A stretch of 64,000 nt of DNA from Candidatus Multivorans sp. (GCA_965206765.1 OZ242222.1:1191165-1255164); one strand, 5' to 3'. Positions 5,870 through 45,969 are shown, numbered from the stretch's first letter. Made by a program: numbers and translations. Notes: generated from the letters alone by a model not told the origin.

Positions 5870-6707
5870 AGAACCCCTTGCCGGTCTTGCGTCCCAGTCG
5901 CCCGGCCTGGACCATCTGCTTGAGCAGTGTCGGCGGGGCGAAGCGGGTCTCCCGGTACTCGTCGAACATGATGTTCGCGACGTAGTACATCGTGTCCAGG
6001 CCGATGAAGTCGCACAGCGTGAACGGTCCCATCGGATAGCCGCAGCCCAGCTTCATCGCGGTGTCGATGTCTTCCAGGCTGCCGATGCCGTTCTCGTAGG
6101 CGCGGATCGCATCCAGCAGATACGGGACCAGCAGCCGATTGACGATGAAACCGGAGTTGTCCTTGCACGCGACCGGCGTCTTGCCGACCCGCTTGGCCAG
6201 ATCCCAGCAGGCGTCGTACGCCTCGTCCGACGTCATCAGGGTGCGGACGACCTCGACCAGCCGCATCGCCGGCACCGGATTGAAGAAGTGGAGCCCCACG
6301 AACCGGTCCGGCCTCGAGGTCGAAGCGGCGAGCTGGGTCAGGGTCAGCGAGGACGTGTTGCTGGCGAAGATCGTGTCCTCCCCGACGATGTCGTCCAGGG
6401 AGACGAACAGCTCGCGCTTCGACTCCAGGTCCTCGACGATCGCCTCGACGATCAGATCGGAACCGGCGAGATCCGCAAGGTCGACCGTGCCGGACAGGTT
6501 CGAGATCGCCCGGTCGTGCTCCCCGGCGTCGATACGCCGCTTCTCCAGACTCTTGGCCAGGGACACGCGCACCGCGCCGAGCCCCGCATCGAGCAGTTCC
6601 CGGTTGATCTCCCTGACCGTGACCGGGATCCCGGCCCGCGAACAGATCTCTGCAATGCCCCGGCCCATGAGACCGCAGCCGACGATGCCAATGCGTTGCA
6701 CTTCCAT
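5856..6707 (-). CDS. hbd: 3-hydroxyacyl-CoA / 3-hydroxybutyryl-CoA dehydrogenase
   Basis: The start is at the internal MEVQRIGIVGCGLMGRGIA Rossmann motif. The HFFNPVP segment and the C-terminal dimerisation region are present. The annotated ORF has a 22-codon upstream extension, which I reject. Confidence 0.8.
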   Translation of the reverse strand: MEVQRIGIVGCGLMGRGIAEICSRAGIPVTVREINRELLDAGLGAVRVSLAKSLEKRRIDAGEHDRAISNLSGTVDLADLAGSDLIVEAIVEDLESKRELFVSLDDIVGEDTIFASNTSSLTLTQLAASTSRPDRFVGLHFFNPVPAMRLVEVVRTLMTSDEAYDACWDLAKRVGKTPVACKDNSGFIVNRLLVPYLLDAIRAYENGIGSLEDIDTAMKLGCGYPMGPFTLCDFIGLDTMYYVANIMFDEYRETRFAPPTLLKQMVQAGRLGRKTGKGFFDYR

Positions 6708-6747
6708 CGAACTCTCTTCTCGCCTCCTCTTGTAGGTCCGCGGCGAA

Positions 6748-7215
6748 TCAGCCGCTCCGGTTCCGAGAGCCACCTGGCCCGGTTTCGGTGCGGGACTCTA
6801 GCAACGGTTCCAGCACCTCGATCCTCCGCTGTCCTGGTTCCCGACCGACCTCCAACCGGACCTCCATCGCCGGCACGGGGTACGGCAGGCGGTCGGCCCA
6901 CTCGACGACCTTGACACCGTCCCCCGCCAACAACTCCTCCAACCCGATCCCCTCGACCTCCTCCGGCTCCAGCCGGTAGAGGTCTACATGGACCAGACGC
7001 GCCGGCCCGCGGTCGTGCTCGTGAATCAGAGTGAAGGTCGGCGACTGGATCTGCCCCGCGTCGAGCCCCAGGCCCTCGGCTATGCCCTGGGTCAGAACCG
7101 TCTTGCCGGAACCCAGGTCGCCGAACAGGAGTGCCATGCCATCGGGCCTCAGCCGTTCGGCGAGTTCGACCCCCAACTTCCGGGTCTCTCCGGCGCTCCC
7201 GGTGCGAACGATCAT
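6748..7215 (-). CDS. tsaE: tRNA threonylcarbamoyladenosine biosynthesis ATPase TsaE (YjeE)
   Basis: 155 aa with P-loop GDLGSGKTVLTQGIAEGLG and the conserved SPTFTLIHEH segment. Confidence 0.85.
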   Translation of the reverse strand: MIVRTGSAGETRKLGVELAERLRPDGMALLFGDLGSGKTVLTQGIAEGLGLDAGQIQSPTFTLIHEHDRGPARLVHVDLYRLEPEEVEGIGLEELLAGDGVKVVEWADRLPYPVPAMEVRLEVGREPGQRRIEVLEPLLESRTETGPGGSRNRSG

Positions 7216-8762
7216 GGCTCCAACAGCGACTTGAACGCCGATCCGAGTTCATCGACCAGGTCGGAGGCGGCCATCGACGTCTCACCCCAGGTTGCGGCGG
7301 CCAGATCGCCCGCCAGACCATGAACGTAAACGCCCATCCTCGCCGCGGAAGGCGGTTCCAATCCCTGGGCCAAGAGCGCCGCGATCACCCCGGTCAGCAC
7401 GTCGCCACTGCCCCCTGTCGCCATACCCGGGTTGCCGGTCGGGTTCACCCAGGTGCCGAGGGCGGGGTCCGAGATCAGCGTCTGGCGGCCCTTGAGGACG
7501 ACCACCGCCCCGGTCTCGCGAGCAGCCCGCCGCGCATACCCCCAGCGGTCGTTCACGACGGCATCGGTCGCGACGCCCAACAGGCGCGCCAGCTCGCCCG
7601 GATGGGGCGTGATCACGAGATGCGTGTCGCGCGCCCGGAGCGCCCTCGCGTCGCCGGCGAATGCGGAAATGCCGTCCGCGTCGAGGACGACCGAGGCCGT
7701 ACTCCGGGCCAGCACCTGCCGGGCAAGAACGCGGGCATCGCCGCTCAGGCCGAGGCCCGGGCCCAGCGCCAACGCGCCCGGCGAGGCGCGCTCGACGATC
7801 GCCTGCAGCAACGGCTCCACCGCGTCCCGCGACCAGCCGCCCCGCTCCGAGGGCAGGCCCAGGGTCATCGACTCGATCGAACCGGCGTCGACCACAAGAG
7901 CGAGGTGCTCCGGCACAGCCGCCGTGACCAGACCGGCGCCGCTCCGGACAGCGGCGCGCGCCGCCAGGACCACGGCCCCGCTGTAGCCGCTCGCTCCGCC
8001 GGCAACGACGACGTGACCGAACGTTCCCTTGTGGCCACCCCGCGGACGCGTTCCGAGGCGGCCCATCAGTTCCTCCCGCCGCGACTGGTAGAGCGCATCG
8101 GGCCCCGGGGGCGGTTCCGTCAGCGGCACACCGAGATCGCCGATCCGGAGCCGGCCGCCAGCGTCGGAGGCCGGCGCCAGCACGTTCGCAACCTTGGGGA
8201 AGCCCAGAGCCACGGTGAGATCGGCGACGACGTGGGGCCCAGGCGGCACGGCCGCGGAGGCATCGAGCCCGGTCGGCAGGTCGACCGAGACGACGGGGAC
8301 TTCTCCCCGGCAGTTGCTCAGCCAGTCGACCCAGCGGGCCACCGGGCCTTCGACGGGCCGATTCAGCCCCGTGCCGAGCAGCGCGTCGACCCAGAGGTCG
8401 ACCTCCCGGCCCACCGCGTCGGACTTGGCGGGCTCGGGAACCGCCGCGGGCGACAGCCCGAGCTGCTCGCAGGAGACGAGCTGCTGCGCCGCTTCGAGGC
8501 TGAGTCTGTCGAGCGGTCCGGCGATGTAGGCCGTCGCTTCGTACCCCCGCGTCGTCAGATCGCGCAGCAGCGCCAGACCGTCGCCGCCGTTGTTGCCCCG
8601 GCCGCAGACGATGGCGACACGGCGCGCGCGCGGATAGCACTCGGCAATGGCGTCGGCGATGGCGCAAGCCGCGTTCTCCATCAAGACCAGCGCCGGCACG
8701 TTCAGGCCGGAGATCGCCGCGGCTTCGACCGACCGCATCTCGTCGCTGGTGACGACTCTCAC
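7212..8762 (-). CDS. nnr: Bifunctional NAD(P)H-hydrate repair enzyme Nnr (N-terminal epimerase YjeF_N plus C-terminal ADP-dependent dehydratase)
   Basis: CGRGNNGGDGL (YjeF_N), then GHKGTFGHVVVAGG ... GNPGMATGGSGDVLTG in the carbohydrate-kinase-like C-domain. I place the start at the GTG at 8762, which forms a GTGA overlap with the upstream gene. The annotated 577-aa ORF carries a 5' read-through. Confidence 0.8.
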   Translation of the reverse strand: MRVVTSDEMRSVEAAAISGLNVPALVLMENAACAIADAIAECYPRARRVAIVCGRGNNGGDGLALLRDLTTRGYEATAYIAGPLDRLSLEAAQQLVSCEQLGLSPAAVPEPAKSDAVGREVDLWVDALLGTGLNRPVEGPVARWVDWLSNCRGEVPVVSVDLPTGLDASAAVPPGPHVVADLTVALGFPKVANVLAPASDAGGRLRIGDLGVPLTEPPPGPDALYQSRREELMGRLGTRPRGGHKGTFGHVVVAGGASGYSGAVVLAARAAVRSGAGLVTAAVPEHLALVVDAGSIESMTLGLPSERGGWSRDAVEPLLQAIVERASPGALALGPGLGLSGDARVLARQVLARSTASVVLDADGISAFAGDARALRARDTHLVITPHPGELARLLGVATDAVVNDRWGYARRAARETGAVVVLKGRQTLISDPALGTWVNPTGNPGMATGGSGDVLTGVIAALLAQGLEPPSAARMGVYVHGLAGDLAAATWGETSMAASDLVDELGSAFKSLLEP

Positions 8763-9529
8763 TGCCGGGACTCCGTTGCTGGCGGACGGCGGGACCAGGA
8801 CGCCACCACGTCGGCGGTTCGCGGGCACAGGGACCGCAACTCGGGCCGGCATTCGAGAGCGGCCCGGAATCGAGCCAGATCGTCCACCGTGTCGAGATCC
8901 TCCTCTTCCGGCAGGAGGGCAACATCCAGGCCCAACTCGCCGCAACGCGACAGCGTCTCGGAAAGCACCGACGGCGTGCTCCAGGCCACTCCGTCGAACA
9001 ACCGACGGTCTACAGCCTCACGCCGCAGGGCGATCAGGTAGTAGCCACCGTCCCGAGCCGGACCCAGGGCCGCATCGCGCCCGGCGGCAAGAAGATCGAA
9101 CGCCATCTCCACCCGCGCCGGATCGAGCTCGGGGTGATCGCTGCCGACCGCCGCCGCGTATCCGGCGCCGGACGCCGCCCATTCCAAACCCCGGTAGAGC
9201 CGCTCGCCCAGGTCGCGACCGCGCTGTCGCCGCCAGGACACGCCGGCAGGCGCCAGGTCGGCTGGCGGATCATCCCCCTTCGACAACGACCACATCAGAA
9301 CCAGATCCCAGCAGCCGGCTTCGAGACGTCGGCTCAGGTCCGCAACCAGGGCGGCGTGCAGCGAAGCGGCCTGACGACCGGTCAGACCGCCTGGAACGAT
9401 CAACCGGGTCTTCACGTCGCCGGGCACCGGGTCCTTGGCGAAGAGCAGCAGCCGGCGCGCCGTCGCGTCGGCGGACCGAACGCCGGGCGCCTCCAGAACC
9501 CTCGCGCAGTCGACGGGGTGCGCCACCAT
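8759..9529 (-). CDS. DUF2064 (TIGR04282) family protein, glycosyltransferase-like nucleotidyltransferase fold
   Basis: LLLFAKDPVPGDVKTRL ... GSDHPEL ... GGYYLIAL ... STPSVL pattern typical of DUF2064. 256 aa. Confidence 0.6.
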   Translation of the reverse strand: MVAHPVDCARVLEAPGVRSADATARRLLLFAKDPVPGDVKTRLIVPGGLTGRQAASLHAALVADLSRRLEAGCWDLVLMWSLSKGDDPPADLAPAGVSWRRQRGRDLGERLYRGLEWAASGAGYAAAVGSDHPELDPARVEMAFDLLAAGRDAALGPARDGGYYLIALRREAVDRRLFDGVAWSTPSVLSETLSRCGELGLDVALLPEEEDLDTVDDLARFRAALECRPELRSLCPRTADVVASWSRRPPATESRQ

Positions 9530-13755: not shown

Positions 13756-14805
13756 ATGAACGGGATGCTGAGCGAGCTGGCCCGAAACCGCTTCGCCGCG
13801 TTCCGCAGCCACATAGACAGCACGGATCCGCGGGGGCGCTGGCTCATCCTCACCCATGACAACCCGGACCCGGACGCCCTGACCGCGGCGACCATTCTGG
13901 CGAAAGTCCTCCGCTCCGGGTTCCAGCGCCGCGTCACCGCCGCCTATCGGGGCATCATCGGCCGGGCCGAAAACCAGGAGATGGTCCGCTCCCTGAAAAT
14001 GCAGTTCAGCCAGGCGCGGCGGCTGAAGCTCGAGAGCTACCGTTACGTAGCGCTGGTCGACTGCCAGCCGGCGACCGGCAACAGCCCCCTGCCTGACGAT
14101 CTGGCGCCCGAAGTCGTCATCGACCACCATCCGCGCCGCCGAAAGACTTCAGCGTCGGCCTTCCACGACCTGCGAAACGACTACGCGGCCTCCGCCACGA
14201 TCGTCGCCGAGTACCTGCTCGCCGCCGGCATTCCGGCCACCCGCCGCGAAGCGACGGCCATCGTCTACGCGATACGCAGCGAGACGCTCGACTTCTCCCG
14301 CGGCGCAGACGAGGCGGATCGGCTGATCCACGAGCACTTCAACGCCCGCGCCCTGCCGCGCCTGCTGGGCCGCATTCAGAACCCGCGGCTGCCCCTCAAC
14401 TACTTCGAGACTCTGCGCGAGGCCCTGGCCAACCTTCGCGGCGTGGACACCCTGATCATGAGCCGGCTCGGCGCCGTCGCCCAGCCCGACATCGTGCCCG
14501 AGATCGCCGATCTGCTGCTGCGCATGGAGGGCCGAACCTGGTCGCTGTGCAGTGGCCTCTACGAGGAGCGGGTCTACTGCTCGATCCGCACCACGAACAC
14601 CCGCGCGGATGCCTCTCGCGTCATGCGCCGGCTGGTCGGGCGCCGCGGCCGCGGCGGCGGCCACGGCATGATCGCCGGCGGCTGGATCCCGGCCGCCCGA
14701 GGCGGGGCCGAGGCGGTGCCGCGCCAGCAGGACCGCCTGGAGGTGCGGCTCGCCACCATTCTGCGCAAGGACCCGGCCCGGATCGCGCCGATCGCAGACG
14801 GTTGA
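13756..14805 (+). CDS. nrnA: DHH/DHHA1 family phosphoesterase (NrnA-like oligoribonuclease / pAp phosphatase)
   Basis: DHH motifs (LTHDNPDPDALTA, VIDHH) and the DHHA1 GGGH motif (RGRGGGHGMIAGG). Confidence 0.75.
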   Translation: MNGMLSELARNRFAAFRSHIDSTDPRGRWLILTHDNPDPDALTAATILAKVLRSGFQRRVTAAYRGIIGRAENQEMVRSLKMQFSQARRLKLESYRYVALVDCQPATGNSPLPDDLAPEVVIDHHPRRRKTSASAFHDLRNDYAASATIVAEYLLAAGIPATRREATAIVYAIRSETLDFSRGADEADRLIHEHFNARALPRLLGRIQNPRLPLNYFETLREALANLRGVDTLIMSRLGAVAQPDIVPEIADLLLRMEGRTWSLCSGLYEERVYCSIRTTNTRADASRVMRRLVGRRGRGGGHGMIAGGWIPAARGGAEAVPRQQDRLEVRLATILRKDPARIAPIADG

Positions 14806-14843
14806 AGCGGCGCCGTCGGGCGGTCCTCAACCGGCGGCCGCCC

Positions 14844-16460
14844 TCACTCCCACTCGATCGTGCCGGGCGGTTTGCTGGTCAGGTCGTAGACCACCCGATT
14901 CACGCCGGCCACCTCGTTCACGATGCGGCCCGCGACCCGCCCCAGGAACTCGTGCGGCAACTGGCTCCAGTCGGCGGTCATGAAGTCCTCGGTCTCGACC
15001 GCCCGCAAGGCGACGACGTTCTCGTAGCTGCGGCCGTCGCCCATCACGCCCACGCTGTGGACCGGCAGCAGCACCGCCAGCGCCTGACTCACGCGGTCGT
15101 AGAGCCCCGCGACGCGCAGTTCCTCGATGAAGATCGCGTCCGCCTCCTGCAGCACCGCCACCCGGTCGGCGGTGACCTCGCCCAGAATCCGGACGCCCAG
15201 GCCCGGACCCGGGAACGGATGCCGGCCCACGAACTCCGAACCGAGGCCGAGTTCGCGGCCGAGGTTGCGCACCTCGTCCTTGAACAGGAAGCGCAGCGGC
15301 TCGATCAACTCGAAGCCCAACCGTTCCGGCAGACCGCCGACATTGTGGTGGCTCTTGATCATCGCCGACGGGCCAAAAGCGGAGACGGACTCGATCACGT
15401 CCGGGTAGAGCGTGCCCTGGACCAGGAAGCGAATCGCGCCCGCGCCTTCGCCGGCCCGCTCCAGCTTCTCGGCCTCGCGCTGAAACACCTCGATGAAGAC
15501 GCGGCCGATCGTCCGGCGTTTCTCCTCCGGATCGGTGACTCCGGCCAGCTCACCCAGAAACTCCCGCGCGGCGTCGACCACGACCAGCCGCAGGTCGAGT
15601 CCCCGGCGCAGGCGCCGCTCCACCTCGCTGCGTTCGTTCTTGCGCAGCAGCCCGTTGTCCACGAACACCGCGGTCAACCGTTCCCCCACGGCGCGCTGCA
15701 CCAGGCTGGCCGCCACCGCCGAGTCGACGCCACCGGAGATCGCACATAGAACACGGTCCGTGGGTCCCACCTGGGCCTCGATCGCGGCTGTCGCCTCGTC
15801 GGCGTAGGACGCCATGCGCCACTCTCCGGCGGCGCCGCAGGCGTCGAACAGGAAGTTGCGCAGCATCCTGGCGCCGCTGTCGGTGTGGGTGACTTCGGGA
15901 TGGAACTGGATACCGAACAGCGCCCGCTCCCGGTCCTGGGCCGCCACCACCGGCACCGTGGAGGTCGACGCCGTCGCTTCAAAGCCCGGCGGCAGTTCCT
16001 CGACCCGGTCGCCGTGGGACATCCACACGTTCTGCTCCGGTCCGAGTCCCGAGAACAGGTCGCCGCCCTTGGCCAGCAGCGTGATGCCGGTGCGACCGTA
16101 CTCCCGCTGGCCCGACGCCGCGACCCGGCCCCCGAGGACCTGAGCCATCCACTGCATGCCGTAGCAGATTCCAAGCACCGGAACGCCGAGCCGGAGCACC
16201 TCCGGGTCGGCCTGCGGCGCGTTCCGCTCGTAGACGCTGTCCGGCCCCCCTGAGAGCACGATGCCGATCGGCCGCCGCGCCCGGATCCGGTCGGCGTCGA
16301 GGTCGAAGGGATGGATCTCGCAGTAGACCCGGAGTTCCCGGATCCGGCGGGCGATCAACTGCGTGTACTGGCCACCGAAGTCGAGCACCAGAACGGTCTC
16401 GTGCTCGCCGGCGGCGGAGGGCTGGACCGGGGACGCCGGTGCGCTCGCCGGTTCAGCCAT
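14844..16460 (-). CDS. guaA: GMP synthase (glutamine-hydrolysing)
   Basis: GATase-1 (LGICYGMQ, HPE), PP-loop SGGVDSAV, and the C-terminal dimerisation domain ending in EWE. The start is at the ATG at 16460 (MAEPAS...), forming an ATGA overlap with the gpsA stop. Confidence 0.9.
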   Translation of the reverse strand: MAEPASAPASPVQPSAAGEHETVLVLDFGGQYTQLIARRIRELRVYCEIHPFDLDADRIRARRPIGIVLSGGPDSVYERNAPQADPEVLRLGVPVLGICYGMQWMAQVLGGRVAASGQREYGRTGITLLAKGGDLFSGLGPEQNVWMSHGDRVEELPPGFEATASTSTVPVVAAQDRERALFGIQFHPEVTHTDSGARMLRNFLFDACGAAGEWRMASYADEATAAIEAQVGPTDRVLCAISGGVDSAVAASLVQRAVGERLTAVFVDNGLLRKNERSEVERRLRRGLDLRLVVVDAAREFLGELAGVTDPEEKRRTIGRVFIEVFQREAEKLERAGEGAGAIRFLVQGTLYPDVIESVSAFGPSAMIKSHHNVGGLPERLGFELIEPLRFLFKDEVRNLGRELGLGSEFVGRHPFPGPGLGVRILGEVTADRVAVLQEADAIFIEELRVAGLYDRVSQALAVLLPVHSVGVMGDGRSYENVVALRAVETEDFMTADWSQLPHEFLGRVAGRIVNEVAGVNRVVYDLTSKPPGTIEWE

Positions 16461-17521
16461 CACAGGGCGGACTCTACCTTCAGTTCTCGCTGCATCAGAT
16501 CCCGAATCGCGTCGGCGGGTTTCTTGCCCCGGTAGAGGATCTCGACCATCTGCTCGGTGATCGGAAGTTCGACCTTCTTCTCGGTCGCCAACTCCAACAG
16601 GGCGAGCGAGTTCCGTACACCTTCGGCAACCCCTGCGCGCTCGGCCTCGATCTCTTCGAGGGTGCGGCCTCGGCCGAGTTCGATCCCCGTGTTCCGGTTG
16701 CGCGACAGGCCGCCGGTACACGTCAGCACGAGATCGCCGAGACCGCCGAGGCCGGCGAAGGTGGCCGGACGGCCGCCGCAGGCCAGACCGAGTCGCATCA
16801 TCTCGTGCAGGCCGCGGGTGATCAGCGCCGCGCGCGTGTTCGATCCGTAGCGCAGGCCGTCCAGAACGCCGGCCGCGATCGCAATCACGTTCTTTGCCGC
16901 CGCGGCGATCTCGACCCCGATCACGTCGGTCGAGGTGTACAGCCGCAGCGATCCGGTTGAGAGCAGCGCCTGCAGCCGCTCGGCCACCGCGTCGGATTCC
17001 GCCGCGACGACGCAGGCGGTCGGCAGCTCGGCGGCGAGTTCGGCCGCGAACGAGGGCCCGCTGATGGTGGCGAACTCAACGTCCGTGCCGGCTGCTGCCG
17101 CCTCTTCCCGGCAGACGTCGCTCATGCACCGGAAACCGCCGCGGTGGTCCGACTCGATGCCCTTGGCGCCGGAAACGAAGGTGACCCGATCCGGCAGCGG
17201 CGCGCCGTCGCCGAGACCTCGCCGCGCCTTGAGAAAGGACCGGACGACCGCCCGAAAGCCGTGGGACGGCACGACGACCAGCACGGTCTCGCAGGCCGCG
17301 GCCTGCCGCAGATCCCAGGTGACCCGAACCTGCGCCGGCAACTCGACACCCGGGAGGTAACGCTCGTTCACCCGCTCCGCCGCCAGAACCGCGCCGAACT
17401 CGGCGGACCGGGCCCAGAGGATGACCGGCAAACCCGCCCGGGCCGCATGCACCGCGAGCGCGGTGCCCCAGGCGCCCGCGCCGAGCACGGCAACTCCATT
17501 GCCTGTGTCCGCGATCGTCAC
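16460..17521 (-). CDS. gpsA: NAD(P)H-dependent glycerol-3-phosphate dehydrogenase
   Basis: VAVLGAGAWGTALA Rossmann motif plus the conserved NVIAIAAGVLDGL and GGLSRNRNTG segments. GTG start at 17521 in a GTGA overlap with the plsY stop. The annotated 677-aa ORF is a read-through. Confidence 0.85.
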   Translation of the reverse strand: MTIADTGNGVAVLGAGAWGTALAVHAARAGLPVILWARSAEFGAVLAAERVNERYLPGVELPAQVRVTWDLRQAAACETVLVVVPSHGFRAVVRSFLKARRGLGDGAPLPDRVTFVSGAKGIESDHRGGFRCMSDVCREEAAAAGTDVEFATISGPSFAAELAAELPTACVVAAESDAVAERLQALLSTGSLRLYTSTDVIGVEIAAAAKNVIAIAAGVLDGLRYGSNTRAALITRGLHEMMRLGLACGGRPATFAGLGGLGDLVLTCTGGLSRNRNTGIELGRGRTLEEIEAERAGVAEGVRNSLALLELATEKKVELPITEQMVEILYRGKKPADAIRDLMQRELKVESAL

Positions 17522-40469: not shown

Positions 40470-40596
40470 CGTTGGCGCAGGGACATGCGCCTTCTGGCAC
40501 CGAACAGCGCAGAGTCGCCTACCGATCCCTCCGTGAGGCTGCGTCATTCGGTGATTGGCCCAGTTCGCGCCCTCGCACGGCGCTCCTGAAGCGATG

Positions 40597-41439
40597 TTAT
40601 CGCCCGGGCCCGACCCTCATGTCATCAACCCGAGCCACGGGCACAATCTCCACACCGCGCCCCTTGCTATAGAGGAACAGGTACCGCGAGTTACCGCCGA
40701 TAATGCTCCAAGAGTGGTGCGTGTAGGTACGCTCCGCCGTGTGTACCACAAAGGCGCTCCCGGGATTGTCCTTCACCTCGGCAATCCGAAGGTGGGCGCC
40801 ACCAAGGAGGCTTGAGGTAAACCCTATCGTGAACACCGCCAGGAAGATCATCACTCCCGTGCCGTGGAATCGCCTACTCAGGAGTACGACCGGAACATAG
40901 GCGATGCTGATCGCAATCAGGGGCATCCACCTGAGCAGCTGAAAACCTTCGTCACCCGGGGCATAGGAGAGAGCTACAAGCGCAACGAACGCCACTATGG
41001 TCAGCCAAGAGGTGATGGACCCCTGCCAAAAGCGCTCGTGCCGGTACACCGAAACTGCTGGCGAGGCAGTCTGCCATGGCTGCGCACCAAGAAGCCACCC
41101 GAGCATGCCGACGGCGGCATGCCGGAGTTGGTCGATGCTACTCGAGACGTAGTCAGTCACGTGGAAGAAGTCACCCACGTCCACGCCGAAATGTCCATAC
41201 AGGACGTGTACATGTAGGTATCCCGACACCAAGAAGGTCGCTGATAGCCACCAACCCAACAACGACAACTCCTTGGCCGGAAAGAGAGTCCTTCCTGACG
41301 ACGAAGAGGCTAGGGCACTACGCTGTCTCCGGAACTCCTTGACCGCAAGCCTGTAGACTTGCGCCACCCACTCCTCTACTTGGAACCGCGGAGGAATCAG
41401 TGGGCGCGTCTCCGTCTTCGCCCGCGGGACCCTCGTCAC
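40597..41439 (-). CDS. Hypothetical polytopic membrane protein (5 predicted TM helices plus a C-terminal soluble domain of about 60 aa)
   Basis: 280-aa ORF in the low-GC island with no recognisable motifs. Its start may be downstream of 41439, given the overlap with the upstream ORF. Confidence 0.5.
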   Translation of the reverse strand: MTRVPRAKTETRPLIPPRFQVEEWVAQVYRLAVKEFRRQRSALASSSSGRTLFPAKELSLLGWWLSATFLVSGYLHVHVLYGHFGVDVGDFFHVTDYVSSSIDQLRHAAVGMLGWLLGAQPWQTASPAVSVYRHERFWQGSITSWLTIVAFVALVALSYAPGDEGFQLLRWMPLIAISIAYVPVVLLSRRFHGTGVMIFLAVFTIGFTSSLLGGAHLRIAEVKDNPGSAFVVHTAERTYTHHSWSIIGGNSRYLFLYSKGRGVEIVPVARVDDMRVGPGR

Positions 41440-41821
41440 TCCCGACGCGCGACGACACGAAACTTGCCATCAGGAGGTACCAGCGCCGATACCGTCCACA
41501 CTGGTCGTTCGACCGAAGCCACTCCGCCCACTCCGTCTGCCGCGCCCGCCGGGTCAGGCGAGACTCCGTCACCAAGCGACTATCGAAGAGGTCACCTATT
41601 TCCTCACGGATTTCACGATCGAGAACGTCGTCTCTTCTTTCAACACCGAGACCGAAGTGCAATCGCAGTCTCAGAGCCGCCGCGTGCTGCAGCAGTCCGC
41701 GCGCTTGGCGCGCGCGGTCCACCAGCATTCTAGTCCGGAGAGGGTCGAGCCAACGTCGCAGTAGAGCAACCGCCGAAAGTGCGTAGACCAACCTAAGCAT
41801 AGAGTCCTTCCGTAGTGTCAC
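41318..41821 (-). CDS. Hypothetical protein (167 aa), island-encoded
   Basis: ORF with atypical codon usage. It has a hydrophobic N-terminus and a charged helical middle. It overlaps the downstream gene by about 120 nt, so the boundaries are uncertain. Confidence 0.35.
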   Translation of the reverse strand: MTLRKDSMLRLVYALSAVALLRRWLDPLRTRMLVDRARQARGLLQHAAALRLRLHFGLGVERRDDVLDREIREEIGDLFDSRLVTESRLTRRARQTEWAEWLRSNDQCGRYRRWYLLMASFVSSRVGSDEGPAGEDGDAPTDSSAVPSRGVGGASLQACGQGVPETA

Positions 41822-42192
41822 CGTGGGGCATACCTCGCTTCTAGCGGGTTGCCTGCGGCATCTTAGCCGGGCTTGATCGGGACGAGCCCCACCCCGCGGC
41901 TTGCTGGTCCCGGCAAGCAGGGCGCGCGACCGGCCGACTTACAAGCCGTACCTCCCGCGGACCGAAACGGGCGGCGGCTTGGCCTACGCGACGCTCCAGC
42001 GGATCCGCCTCAACGGTAGGGGGCACGACCAGGACAACTGGCGGGGAGCCTGGGGAACTCCGCCAACCTCAGGCAGAGGTCCCTCAGTCGCCGCCGAGTG
42101 TATGCTCGGCCACGGCCCCCGCCTGAGGGAGTCCGCTAAGAGCAACCCACCTTGACCCGGCGTAACAGCGCCAACGACGACCGCGCACCGCC

Positions 42193-43257
42193 ATGATCGC
42201 ATCGGCATCCGCCGCAGAACAACAGCTTCGCCGCTACTTGGCGGCGCCCCGGTACTCACCTCTCTATGTCGCAGGGGACGCCGTAGGTGTCTTGCCCTGC
42301 TTTCCTGCTTCGTCCTTCGACTGCTGCATGACCAGCCCCCCCTATTGGCGGAAGCGGCAGTACTCGGGCGGCGGTATCGGAATGGAGAGCACCTACGAAG
42401 ACTATGTCGACAAACTTCTCGCGGTGTTGGGAGAGGTCCGTCGCGTCCTTAAGCCCACGGGCTCGCTCTGGCTTAACCTGGGAGACTCCTACAAGAACAA
42501 GGGGCTGGCCGGCATTCCATGGCGAGTGGCATTGCGGCTCACGGACGAGCAGAACTGGATCCTCCGCAACAGTGTGGTGTGGAACAAGATCAAGGGCGGG
42601 CCAGACAACACCCGCGACCGTCTCCGAAACGTCCATGAAAACGTGTTTCACTTCGTCAAGGAACCGCGCGGGTACTACTACGACGTCGACTCGATTCGCA
42701 GCACACCGAAGACGACAAAGGTCGTCAATGGCTCCGTAGTCACGGCGACCGGCGTTCGCGGCGTGCGATATCGGAGGCAGATCGAACTCTCCACCGAACT
42801 CAGTGCGTCTGAGAGAAAGTCCGCCTCTCGGGCTCTCGCGGACATGCTCAACGCCGTGCGAGGTGGCACCGTGGCCGACTTCCGCATGATTATTCGTGGC
42901 AACCAGAGGACCACCCACTCGGACTCCGCAAGCGTCTCGGGTCGCGCCAAGGAGCTTCGCGATAAGGGCTTCTACTTCCTGAAGTACCACCCGAACGGCA
43001 GCAAGCCTGCGGACGTCTGGGACATCCTTCCTGAAGACACCCAGAAACGGCGAGCACATTTCGCACCTTACCCAGAGGATCTCTGCAAACTACCGATCCT
43101 CGCGACTTCGCCACCAGACGGCACGGTCCTTGACCCGTTCTGCGGCACAGGAACGACGATGCTAGTCGCACAGCGTCTAGGGAGAAAGTCGGTCGGCATC
43201 GATCTATCGGCCGAGTATCTGGAAATGGCCGAGATGCGAACGGGCTCATTGTTGTGA
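42193..43257 (+). CDS. Site-specific DNA methyltransferase (N4-cytosine/N6-adenine, beta class, PF01555-like)
   Basis: Motif IV TSPPYW precedes motif I DPFCGTGTT. That order is characteristic of beta-class amino-MTases, and an S-P-P-Y tetrapeptide favours N4-cytosine specificity. Confidence 0.85.
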   Translation: MIASASAAEQQLRRYLAAPRYSPLYVAGDAVGVLPCFPASSFDCCMTSPPYWRKRQYSGGGIGMESTYEDYVDKLLAVLGEVRRVLKPTGSLWLNLGDSYKNKGLAGIPWRVALRLTDEQNWILRNSVVWNKIKGGPDNTRDRLRNVHENVFHFVKEPRGYYYDVDSIRSTPKTTKVVNGSVVTATGVRGVRYRRQIELSTELSASERKSASRALADMLNAVRGGTVADFRMIIRGNQRTTHSDSASVSGRAKELRDKGFYFLKYHPNGSKPADVWDILPEDTQKRRAHFAPYPEDLCKLPILATSPPDGTVLDPFCGTGTTMLVAQRLGRKSVGIDLSAEYLEMAEMRTGSLL

Positions 43258-44102
43258 GCCAGGTACTCGAGCTCTTCGGGCACGGTGCGGACGAGGCAAC
43301 CGATTGGTCTCGGGTGGTTGGGGAGCAGCTCTGCCCCTACCTAGGCTCGGCATGCATCAAGACCCGGAAGAGTCAACCCGAAGTGGCCATTGGAACCTGT
43401 TGCGTCAGCTACGGCCGCGAGGAGCGGACTCCGGTGATCTGTCCGAACCGGCTCCTGAGAGGCGGAAAGGTAATCATCGACTGCATGCGCTACTTGCGGT
43501 CCTACGGACCGGGGGACGACCTGCACGTCGTTCCAGAAGTCGGAGTGCCGGGCGGAAGTGCCGACTACTTCTTGGTGTCTGTGAGCGGGGGCTCAGTCGG
43601 GGACTTTGTCGGGATCGAGTTGCAAGCACTTGACACGACGGGAACGGTCTGGCCGGCTCGTCAGCGGTTCCTAGGGCGAGTCGGACTACGCCAACGCGCC
43701 GAAGCAGAAGCAAGCAGTCGCAGATACGGCATGAACTGGAAGATGACCGCGAAGACGACTCTTGTTCAGCTACACCACAAGGTCCGAACTTTCGAGGCCC
43801 TGGGCCGGCAACTCGTACTTGTCTTGCAGGACGAGCTTCTTGGCTACTTGCAGAGGGAGTTCACCTTCGGGCACGTAGGCCATGCTTCCGACAACGACCC
43901 GATGCAGTTCCACGCCTACAACGTGCAACGGGGCCAAGCAGGCAGCGGGTTACATCTCGCAGAACGGCTGAGCACCGACACCAAGGGAGTCCGCCGCTGC
44001 TTGGATCTTCAGACTGAGGCGCGAGTTGACACCGACCATCTGGTCGCGCAGCTGCGCAGAAAGCTAGGTCCCAGCACCCTCTTCCGCCCAAGAGGAACGT
44101 AG
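43254..44102 (+). CDS. Candidate cognate type II restriction endonuclease (Cys-rich N-terminal metal-binding region)
   Basis: GTG start at 43254 overlaps the MTase TGA, forming a GTGA that implies translational coupling. It has 5 Cys in the first 65 aa (CPYL...C...CC...C) and a possible D...E-x-Q/K catalytic core (DFVGIELQ). Confidence 0.5.
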   Translation: MSQVLELFGHGADEATDWSRVVGEQLCPYLGSACIKTRKSQPEVAIGTCCVSYGREERTPVICPNRLLRGGKVIIDCMRYLRSYGPGDDLHVVPEVGVPGGSADYFLVSVSGGSVGDFVGIELQALDTTGTVWPARQRFLGRVGLRQRAEAEASSRRYGMNWKMTAKTTLVQLHHKVRTFEALGRQLVLVLQDELLGYLQREFTFGHVGHASDNDPMQFHAYNVQRGQAGSGLHLAERLSTDTKGVRRCLDLQTEARVDTDHLVAQLRRKLGPSTLFRPRGT

Positions 44103-44109
44103 GCACGCC

Positions 44110-44290
44110 TCCAGCTTTGCCCTAACAGGTTCCTTTAGCCAAGACAGGACGCCGAGGTTGCCCTCGCGAGCCGCGGCGTGTCGCCTCCACCGCAGTTAGG
44201 AAAGCGAACGGCGCGGTAGTACGCGGGAACGTCGGAGCCGGCGGCGTCGATTCGAGCGACTTCCCAGGCCCCCTAGCCCCCCATAGCGGA
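44110..44290 (-). pseudogene. Decayed duplicate of the 3' end (last ~55 codons) of the hypothetical gene at 44962..45969
   Basis: About 75% nucleotide identity to 44975..45140. The translation retains ...YYRA.RF......REGNLGVL.WL.EP... in the same order as the intact C-terminus. Confidence 0.7.
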
Positions 44291-44954
44291 CCGGTGCCGA
44301 AGTTGGCGGCAGGTCTAGTACCTGCCATATCGACTCACGGTCGAGGAAGTCGTCGAACCGACGAACGTGCTCGACCTGGTTTCCAATCCCGATGAAGTTC
44401 CACCCCAACGCGCGACTCGCTGCCCTGTCCCATGACTGGTTTCCGAAGTAGAACCTCCGCTCGGCTGGTTTGTCAGCCATGGCTCTTCGCTCGGCGATCT
44501 GCATGATCTCGATCCGGCGAATGGCGTCTGAAGCGGATGACAAGTGCAACATGTCGGGGTCGAGGCCGATCGCTCGGAGCTTCATCGCCGCCGTCTCAGG
44601 CCAACCGCCGGTCGCAACGGCCACGCGGACTTCCGGGTGCGCAATGAGTCGGTTCACGAAGGCACGGGCGCCGGGGATCTCCGGTAGTCGGCCATCCCGA
44701 TCGCTGAGATAGTCCCGGACCAGGGCGACAAAGGCCTTCTTGACCGAGGCACGGGCAGCGAAGCGGTCGATTTCGACGGCGTGCCGATCGAGGATCTCGT
44801 CCAGGATGCCGCTGTCCGTGGCGTGCTGGTAGCTGGACCAGTCCTCATCGACCCCGATGTCGAGCACGTCTCGAACCGCCTGGGCGTACAAGACTCCGTC
44901 GAACTCGTCCGACTCGACGAGGGTTCCGTCGACGTCGAAGACGATCAGGTGCAT
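44196..44954 (-). CDS. HAD-superfamily hydrolase
   Basis: Start MHLIVFDVDGTL (HAD motif I), motif II S/T, and a K...GD/N region (WNFIGIGNQ). The C-terminal ~30 codons read through into the duplicated fragment. Confidence 0.7.
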   Translation of the reverse strand: MHLIVFDVDGTLVESDEFDGVLYAQAVRDVLDIGVDEDWSSYQHATDSGILDEILDRHAVEIDRFAARASVKKAFVALVRDYLSDRDGRLPEIPGARAFVNRLIAHPEVRVAVATGGWPETAAMKLRAIGLDPDMLHLSSASDAIRRIEIMQIAERRAMADKPAERRFYFGNQSWDRAASRALGWNFIGIGNQVEHVRRFDDFLDRESIWQVLDLPPTSAPVRYGGLGGLGSRSNRRRRLRRSRVLPRRSLS

Positions 44955-44961
44955 GGACTTC

Positions 44962-45969
44962 CTAGCTTCCACGGTTCGTAGCCAGCCACTCCTCCAGGGC
45001 CACTCTGGCCGGTTCCTCCAGCCAGGGCAGGACGCCCAGGTTGCCCTCGCGGGCGGCGGCGTCTATGTCGACTTCGTTGCGGTCGAGAAAGCGGGCGGCG
45101 CGGTAGTACAGGGGGCCCTCGGAGTCGGCGGCGTCGCCGAGTTCGATCAGGTGGCCGGCGAGTTCGCGGGTGCGGCGGAGCCTGGGCGGCAGCGGTGGCG
45201 CGGGCAGGGGTCTGGGCAGGCGAGGCTGGAGACCCGCGGCTTCGGCTGCGCATTGGAACGCCGCGGCGTCGGGCGGCGACTCGCCGCCGTGAAACAGGGC
45301 GTCGAAGGCCTCGGGCCAGGTGGATTGCAGGCGTTCGGCGAGCAGGCGCCGCTCGCGGGCGCCGAGCTGCATCGCGCGCGGTACGACGAGACGGGCGCCG
45401 GCGGCGGCGAGTCGCGCCATCGCCGGCGCCAGGAGGCCCGGCTGGTCGGTCCAGTCGGCAACGAGCGGCCAGACGACGGTCGCGCCGGCCAGCGGACGCG
45501 GTTCGAACGGGAGGCCAGGCTGCCGACGCTCCCTGAACTGGCTTCGCAGCGCGGCAGCGTGGCGGACCAGGGCGTCGAGGAGGTCGACTGCGACGACGGC
45601 GTTGGGGGGCAGGTCGGCAAGTCTTGGCGCGGCCACCTCGCCAAGGCTCGACCCGCCGACCGGGATGTTCGCTACCACTTGAATCAGGAGCGGCACTCCG
45701 GCACCGGCCGCGGCCTCGACGATGCGGGTACGGAGGGGCTCGTGATCCGCCGGTAGCGGGGGAACGTAGACGACATCGGTCACCGAGTGCACCCCTTCGG
45801 CGGCCTCGGCGCCGGCCGGCAAGGGTCCGGCCGTCGACGGCGGCAGGCCGCCGGTGGCGAGATCGCACCAGAGGTCGTCGCTGCCGGCCGCGGGCCAACG
45901 GGGAAAGCTGTGACGGATCCAGAGGTTCGCCGGTTCGGCGACGTGTTCGCGGAGGTTGAGAGCGCTCAC
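44962..45969 (-). CDS. Hypothetical protein (335 aa) with no recognised family
   Basis: Clean high-GC3 ORF, Pro/Ala/Leu-rich, with no catalytic signature that I can assign. Its 3' end is the source of the duplication at 44110..44290. Confidence 0.55.
   Translation of the reverse strand: MSALNLREHVAEPANLWIRHSFPRWPAAGSDDLWCDLATGGLPPSTAGPLPAGAEAAEGVHSVTDVVYVPPLPADHEPLRTRIVEAAAGAGVPLLIQVVANIPVGGSSLGEVAAPRLADLPPNAVVAVDLLDALVRHAAALRSQFRERRQPGLPFEPRPLAGATVVWPLVADWTDQPGLLAPAMARLAAAGARLVVPRAMQLGARERRLLAERLQSTWPEAFDALFHGGESPPDAAAFQCAAEAAGLQPRLPRPLPAPPLPPRLRRTRELAGHLIELGDAADSEGPLYYRAARFLDRNEVDIDAAAREGNLGVLPWLEEPARVALEEWLATNRGS

Follow-up and report, generated by a model that had tools for sequence, protein, structure and literature searches.

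A Candidatus Multivorans locus predicted to encode a Type II restriction-modification module of an SPPY methyltransferase and a compact NotI-family endonuclease

NotI and its relatives

The restriction endonuclease (REase) NotI of Nocardia otitidis-caviarum (PDB entries 3BVQ and 3C25; Pfam family PF12183) belongs to a Type II system with a methyltransferase (MTase) partner, and has a PD-(D/E)XK core with D...E-x-Q in place of E-x-K and an N-terminal Cys4 domain. Its Cys4 structural motif holds Fe2+, and Gln replaces the catalytic Lys (PMC4081073). The base-contacting residues of NotI are His189, Gly190 and Asn230, the first two of which contact base pair 2/7 (PMC3089450). The locus compared with it here lies in a stretch of 64,000 nt from Candidatus Multivorans sp. 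(GCA_965206765.1, OZ242222.1:1191165-1255164; the whole stretch is called the window, and positions 42193-44102 of it are shown). Two genes, M (42193..43257) and R (43254..44102), very probably form a Type II restriction-modification (R-M) module at this locus, consisting of an SPPY methyltransferase and a compact NotI-family endonuclease, as judged from sequence comparisons and a structural model. Candidatus Multivorans is placed in Acidobacteriota, class Thermoanaerobaculia.

Other PD-(D/E)XK enzymes that have Gln or Glu for the catalytic Lys, namely BglII, BamHI and BstYI, lack the Cys4 domain and have no detectable sequence relationship to the R protein, and their structural likeness to it is confined to the common core.

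Relatives with 46-55% full-length identity to the R protein are named "NotI family restriction endonuclease" by NCBI. They match it in length (about 280-290 aa), share its conserved Cys and catalytic residues, and are encoded in the same overlapping M-to-R operon with an SPPY methyltransferase upstream. These relatives include WP_176538638.1 (plasmid pBspH9) and proteins from Klebsiella, Enterobacter and Serratia plasmids, Priestia megaterium and Phaeospirillum tilakii, and the plasmid relatives so named adjoin genes annotated "site-specific DNA-methyltransferase". A cluster look-up yielded no further names for the family. On sequence grounds, the window R gene is thus a member of an already-annotated compact NotI-family subfamily. 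It differs from these relatives in its Acidobacteriota-like host of 68% GC, in its chromosomal site next to lysS, and in its GTG start codon, whereas the relatives start with ATG. No exact copy of the window REase or MTase was found in a collection of 15 billion proteins, where the closest proteins to them were 90-91% identical and came from ENA metagenome assemblies. For members of the compact subfamily, no documented specificity was found in the literature searched.

Relationship of the R protein to NotI

When 47 diverse homologues of the R protein (24-50% identical to it) were combined in a profile and compared with all PDB sequences, NotI (3bvq_A) was the sole match below E=0.1 (E=2.9e-6, 29.9 bits), the NotI entries matched being 3BVQ/3C25. 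In the first aligned stretch, the family consensus ElfGe..CPfl..C.K..iGtCsV..viiCPkRfle faces EFFGH..CPFL..C.K..GVCVV..LVCPNRALD of NotI 13-87, and the corresponding stretch of the window R protein is ELFGH..CPYL..C.K..IGTCCV..VICPNRLL. The four Cys and the motifs FGH, CP(F/Y)L and CPNR of NotI and R are in register. The first-pass annotation, made from the window alone, had likened the pattern FGH...CPYL to NotI, and this comparison proved right. The second aligned stretch is weaker, with GSADY...IELQALDTTGT facing SFDW...LEIQTMDFHGS of NotI, and it places D104, E122 and Q124 of the R protein on NotI D160, E182 and Q184, respectively.

The AlphaFold2 (AF2) model of the R protein had a predicted local distance difference test score (pLDDT) of 79.9 and a predicted template modelling score (pTM) of 0.82. 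When it was compared with solved structures by Foldseek, NotI was retrieved with E=2.7e-7 and probability 1.0, and the next match had E=0.5. The PDB homology search and the structure prediction, both proposed in the first-pass annotation, have thus found likeness to a nuclease fold, with NotI as the single strong structural match. The REase_II model of PADLOC also matches the R protein. Used alone against PDB sequences (phmmer), the R protein gave noise only, and NCBIfam contained no model matching the REase.

The identification of the R protein as a compact NotI-family PD-(D/E)XK endonuclease is supported by these profile and model comparisons, and its earlier listing as a candidate REase is borne out by the NotI-like fold, the PADLOC match and the MTase partner. 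The R protein and NotI are distant relatives, being about 15-17% identical, and differ in length (282 and 383 aa, respectively). In addition, the R subfamily has strongly conserved motifs of its own, NWKMTAKT and HHK.

Conserved cysteines and predicted active site

The cysteines of the R protein are spaced as C27-x6-C34-x14-C49-C50-x12-C63. Conservation was read from the 47 diverse homologues and from a separate alignment of 23 close homologues. Among the close homologues, C27, C34, C49, C63, D104, D117, E122 and Q124 are invariant. The diverse set shows no variation at C27, C34, C49, D104 or K176, and at least 90% of its sequences keep C63, E122 and Q124. Given this conservation among proteins of 24-50% identity, the Cys pattern, as a sequence feature, is more than chance.

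C27, C34, C49 and C63 fall on C42, C55, C65 and C81 of NotI, which are the sole Cys in NotI 13-87. A Cys4 structural metal-binding segment is accordingly predicted at 43332..43442 (+) from conservation and the NotI alignment, and an N-terminal Cys4 fold is predicted for the R protein, in which the four Cys would cluster in three dimensions as the alignment with NotI implies. In the "CC" pair, the second position (C50) is not conserved, and homologues have CT, CS or CR; judged by conservation, only C49 of the pair is a candidate metal ligand. The Cys motif described earlier for aa 27-64 therefore stands as a conserved pattern, and its x13 spacing is valid only when counted from C49.

The predicted catalytic core comprises E95, D104 and E122-L-Q124 (43536..43625, +), as read from conservation, the NotI alignment and the beta-strands of the model. 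In the AF2 model, these residues lie on the consecutive beta-strands 89-98, 101-111 and 114-123. A D...E-L-Q catalytic segment had been proposed earlier within GDFVGIELQALD (aa 116-127). Its E-L-Q part holds, with E122 and Q124 aligned to E182 and Q184 of NotI; its acid has to be replaced, because D117 of GDFVGIELQALD has no acidic counterpart in NotI and the partner acid of E-x-Q in the profile alignment is D104.

The M gene and the M/R junction

The M gene (42193..43257, +) encodes a 354-aa protein that matches PF01555 N6_N4_Mtase with E=1.8e-48 in a Pfam search and the PADLOC model MTase_II with E=1.3e-66. N4-cytosine MTases and M.PvuII are among its relatives in the PDB, and its orthologues are found upstream of REase homologues. 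The sequence TSPPYW (aa 47-52), which includes motif IV SPPY (aa 48-51; 42334..42345, +), precedes DPFCGTGTT (aa 314-322; 43132..43158, +), and this is the motif order of the beta class. DPFCGTGTT represents the S-adenosylmethionine (AdoMet, SAM)-binding motif I, as seen from the sequence and from the alignment with the pBspH9 orthologue, and SAM-MTase Pfam matches lie on the M protein at aa 310-350. TSPPYW is kept in the M orthologue of plasmid pBspH9. By the established motifs of MTases, a motif IV of the form SPPY points to N4-cytosine rather than N6-adenine methylation, and the product of M is therefore probably N4-methylcytosine (m4C). By its motifs, the M gene encodes a beta-class amino-methyltransferase, which probably acts as an N4-cytosine DNA methyltransferase.

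The R gene is an open reading frame (ORF) of 282 aa (43254..44102, +) with a GTG start codon, which overlaps the TGA stop of the 354-aa M ORF as GTGA (43254..43257, +). The first-pass annotation had already described a GTGA coupling to an SPPY methyltransferase, and the overlap, the TSPPYW motif and the PF01555 match agree with it; most homologous junctions have ATGA or GTGA. Since the R N-terminus (MSQVLELFGH) is in register with the N-termini of the 23 close homologues, the GTG start is supported.

Gene pairing, distribution and selection

Homologues of R (E<=1e-3) form about 3,200 clusters at 90% identity, nearly all of about 280 aa, and 763 clusters at 50% identity. Members of the compact subfamily occur in no fewer than 496 species-level genomes, which represent many phyla, and they are numerous in AT-rich hosts, Acinetobacter and Priestia among them.

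Gene pairing was surveyed in 80 loci from species-level genomes, including Proteobacteria, Cyanobacteria, Chloroflexi, Planctomycetes, Acidobacteria and Nitrospirae. In 79 of the 80 loci, the gene immediately before the REase homologue encodes an orthologue of the window MTase (58-86% identical), and the contig of the single unpaired locus starts at the REase start. The M/R junction of the 79 paired loci is ATGA in 66 cases and GTGA in 10, so that the overlap is kept in 76. Such a gene pair, strict yet laterally scattered, is a signature of Type II R-M systems. The same pairing bears on the idea that R is a PD-(D/E)XK nuclease with a non-restriction role, either in repair or modification-dependent, which would share only its fold with NotI. 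This is extremely improbable, because strict phylum-wide pairing with one orthologous, overlapping MTase is classical for Type II systems, and a modification-dependent enzyme would not be retained with a cognate methylase.

Selection on the pair was estimated by comparison with close relatives in metagenome assemblies, whose R is 90% identical, and with a Candidatus Multivorans metagenome-assembled genome, the closest named genome, whose R is 79% identical. The ratio of non-synonymous to synonymous substitution rates (dN/dS) was 0.145-0.15 for R and 0.10-0.17 for M, and the dS of the R-M pair was close to that of neighboring lysS. These values indicate purifying selection on the pair and divergence in step with the chromosome; the R-M module is inherited vertically under purifying selection within the Candidatus Multivorans-related lineage.

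Weighing of the Type II reading

A number of results weigh against the reading of the locus as a NotI-family R-M module. Of the two stretches aligned with NotI, the second, which holds the catalytic residues, is insignificant by itself, and a profile of the close homologues only had no match in PDB. The window R protein scores 18.5 bits against PF12183 NotI (E=0.0014, aa 95-200), which is below the gathering score of 22; its PF12183 membership is by transitivity, not by direct score, because 44 of the 47 diverse homologues match this family (best E=5.5e-18). Within the AF2 model, confidence is lowest in the Cys segment (pLDDT 57-58). No target-specific signal emerged from palindrome avoidance, whether analyzed in the window, across pooled host loci totaling 0.89 Mb or within the 79 R-M modules. 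Finally, neither a promoter nor a terminator of the operon was detected with sigma-70 patterns and an intrinsic terminator scan, a scan that is probably uninformative for this phylum.

The last result also speaks for the R gene being an inactive relic beside a still-useful solitary methyltransferase, and R-M systems often decay to orphan MTases. A relic is nonetheless very unlikely in view of the full-length ORF with all conserved Cys and catalytic residues intact, the dN/dS of about 0.15, which is like that of the MTase and lysS, and the maintained start/stop overlap.

With the two genes read as an active Type II module, a mode of action may be proposed. The M methyltransferase would mark host copies of a short target, probably palindromic, and probably as m4C, and the R endonuclease would cut this target wherever incoming DNA carries it unmethylated. 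The putative Cys4 site (C27, C34, C49, C63) would bind a structural metal, which is Fe in NotI and possibly Zn in the R protein, and the bound metal would position DNA-recognition elements. Cleavage would take place in a Mg2+-dependent site formed by D104, E122 and Q124, probably aided by E95 and K176. By analogy with NotI, the R endonuclease would probably be a homodimer, and the GTGA overlap may couple translation of R to that of M.

The locus can be annotated as a NotI-family Type II R-M system (m4C-type SPPY methylase and Cys4 PD-(D/E)XK endonuclease) of an acidobacterial-type genome, an ordinary bacterial defense against phages, and has little significance beyond that.

Recognition sequence

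An enzyme related to NotI in a GC-rich host might be an isoschizomer of NotI (GC^GGCCGC) or, as the first-pass annotation had suggested, a rare cutter with an 8-bp GC-rich site. Membership of the NotI family by fold and motifs and the 68% GC of the host are in line with such a specificity. The low identity to NotI and a length shorter by 100 aa speak against it, as does the predicted base-reading loop. The counterpart of the NotI loop MDFHG (186-190) is LDTTG (aa 126-130; 43629..43643, +), in which D127, T129 and G130 are invariant among the close homologues. The NotI loop segment DFHG is thus DTTG in R, with Gly190 kept as Gly130 and the base-reading His189 replaced by the invariant Thr129; the alignment pairs no R residue with Asn230. 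The NotI site GCGGCCGC is not depleted in the window (18 observed, about 22 expected), and none of the 8-mer palindromes is depleted in the pooled host loci. An 8-bp all-GC site would also be rare in the AT-rich hosts in which the subfamily is common. Taken together, these points leave the 8-bp GC-rich site unsupported and make a rare cutter of this kind highly improbable. Nothing indicates that the R target is GCGGCCGC; it probably is not. The metal of R may likewise not be iron.

A different candidate is offered by BspHI, which cuts T^CATGA. A subfamily of the BspHI type would produce 4-nt 5' overhangs, like those of NotI, and would have the C of this site methylated to m4C. Plasmid pBspH9 of Acinetobacter sp. 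NEB 394 encodes orthologues of both proteins, WP_176538638.1 (46% identical to R) and WP_176538639.1 (59% identical to M, gap-free and with TSPPYW). The strain was formerly known as "Bacillus species H" and is the source of the BspH names, BspHI included, and its BspHIII and BspHIV are Type III systems (PMC8259958). BspHII is a methylase of the bacteriophage exclusion (BREX) type (PMC12707154), so that none of the other named BspH systems is Type IIP. The pBspH9 pair, as orthologues in the namesake strain, could accordingly be BspHI, and the absence of gaps between the MTases, even in the central region, suggests a single specificity across the subfamily. The lead is unconfirmed. The strain encodes several R-M systems (PMC9122589), and specificities could differ at 46% identity. 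TCATGA is not depleted in the window (7 observed vs. 9.1 expected) or in the pooled loci (194 vs. 237), and a literature search ("NotI family", M.BspHI, TCATGA with m4C) gave nothing decisive and no link between TCATGA and m4C. T^CATGA is therefore a tentative assignment for the subfamily, possible but less likely than not.

Only a generic avoidance of many hexamer palindromes was seen, with no site standing out. In the pooled loci, CTCGAG, AAGCTT, CAGCTG and ACGCGT all have values of about 0.5. GCATGC is the lowest within the 79 modules, yet occurs twice in the R gene of the window. The most depleted hexamer palindromes of the window are CAGCTG (2 vs. 13.5 expected) and AGATCT (4 vs. 16.4 expected), and their depletion may reflect other R-M systems in the lineage or general palindrome avoidance.

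The target of this very common and phylogenetically scattered subfamily, once known, would annotate thousands of genes. It is conceivable, though doubtful, that the "mini-NotI" subfamily of about 280 aa with its overlapping SPPY methylase is among the most widespread Type II modules never assigned a specificity. Comparison with NotI could reveal how the Cys4 scaffold supports different targets, and if the subfamily does read a different, shorter site on this scaffold, it would show retargeting of a metal-organized fold.

Genomic setting

In relatives, the gene order is lysS, a 670-aa OLD-family ATPase, M, R, a HAD hydrolase, a 335-aa ORF, ribE and ribD. The OLD-family ATPase-nuclease of the relatives matches the PADLOC model Old with E=9.4e-24. 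The slot between lysS and the methylase spans 40472-42178 in the window, 6427-8924 in the related locus L081 and 2603-4615 in L001. In the window, this slot lacks the OLD gene and has instead two unrelated minus-strand ORFs, one of 280 aa that is multi-pass membrane-like by eye (40597..41439, -) and one of 167 aa (41318..41821, -); neither has a Pfam or PADLOC match. Homology to the relatives restarts at 42179, 14 nt upstream of the M start. The R-M pair thus lies beside a variable defense slot, and the region looks like a small defense-island hotspot with cassette exchange.

The GC content is 68.4% in the window, 60-62% in the M and R genes and at least 70% in the flanks. Across 40500-44750, the GC fraction is 0.59-0.64, compared with 0.70-0.76 in the flanks. 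Found despite the lysS-like synonymous divergence of the pair, the low GC of this stretch points to an old, unameliorated acquisition.

Downstream of R, two direct-repeat copies, each about 150 nt long and 76-77% identical to one another, occupy 44101-44249 and 44984-45136, the first of them beginning at the REase stop codon. Read on the minus strand with a frameshift, this first copy encodes DAAGSDVPAYYRAVRF / AAAREGNLGVLSWLKEPVRAKLE, a pseudo-copy that corresponds to the C-terminal end of the 335-aa ORF (44962..45969, -). The repeat is also found in the relatives L081-L083 and L001, and is therefore regarded as an old rearrangement scar. The HAD gene is situated between the two repeat copies. 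Its ORF (44196-44972, -) has 258 aa in the window, compared with 227 aa called for the orthologues, and its last approximately 60 residues are Arg-rich and extend into the relic repeat. Probably the genuine protein ends earlier, or else these last residues are an artefact of read-through.

In L082, a phage-integrase fragment and a DDE transposase (13963-16474) are inserted just past the riboflavin synthase gene, and replace the ribD-ftsY-aroB synteny that is seen in L081, L083 and the window.

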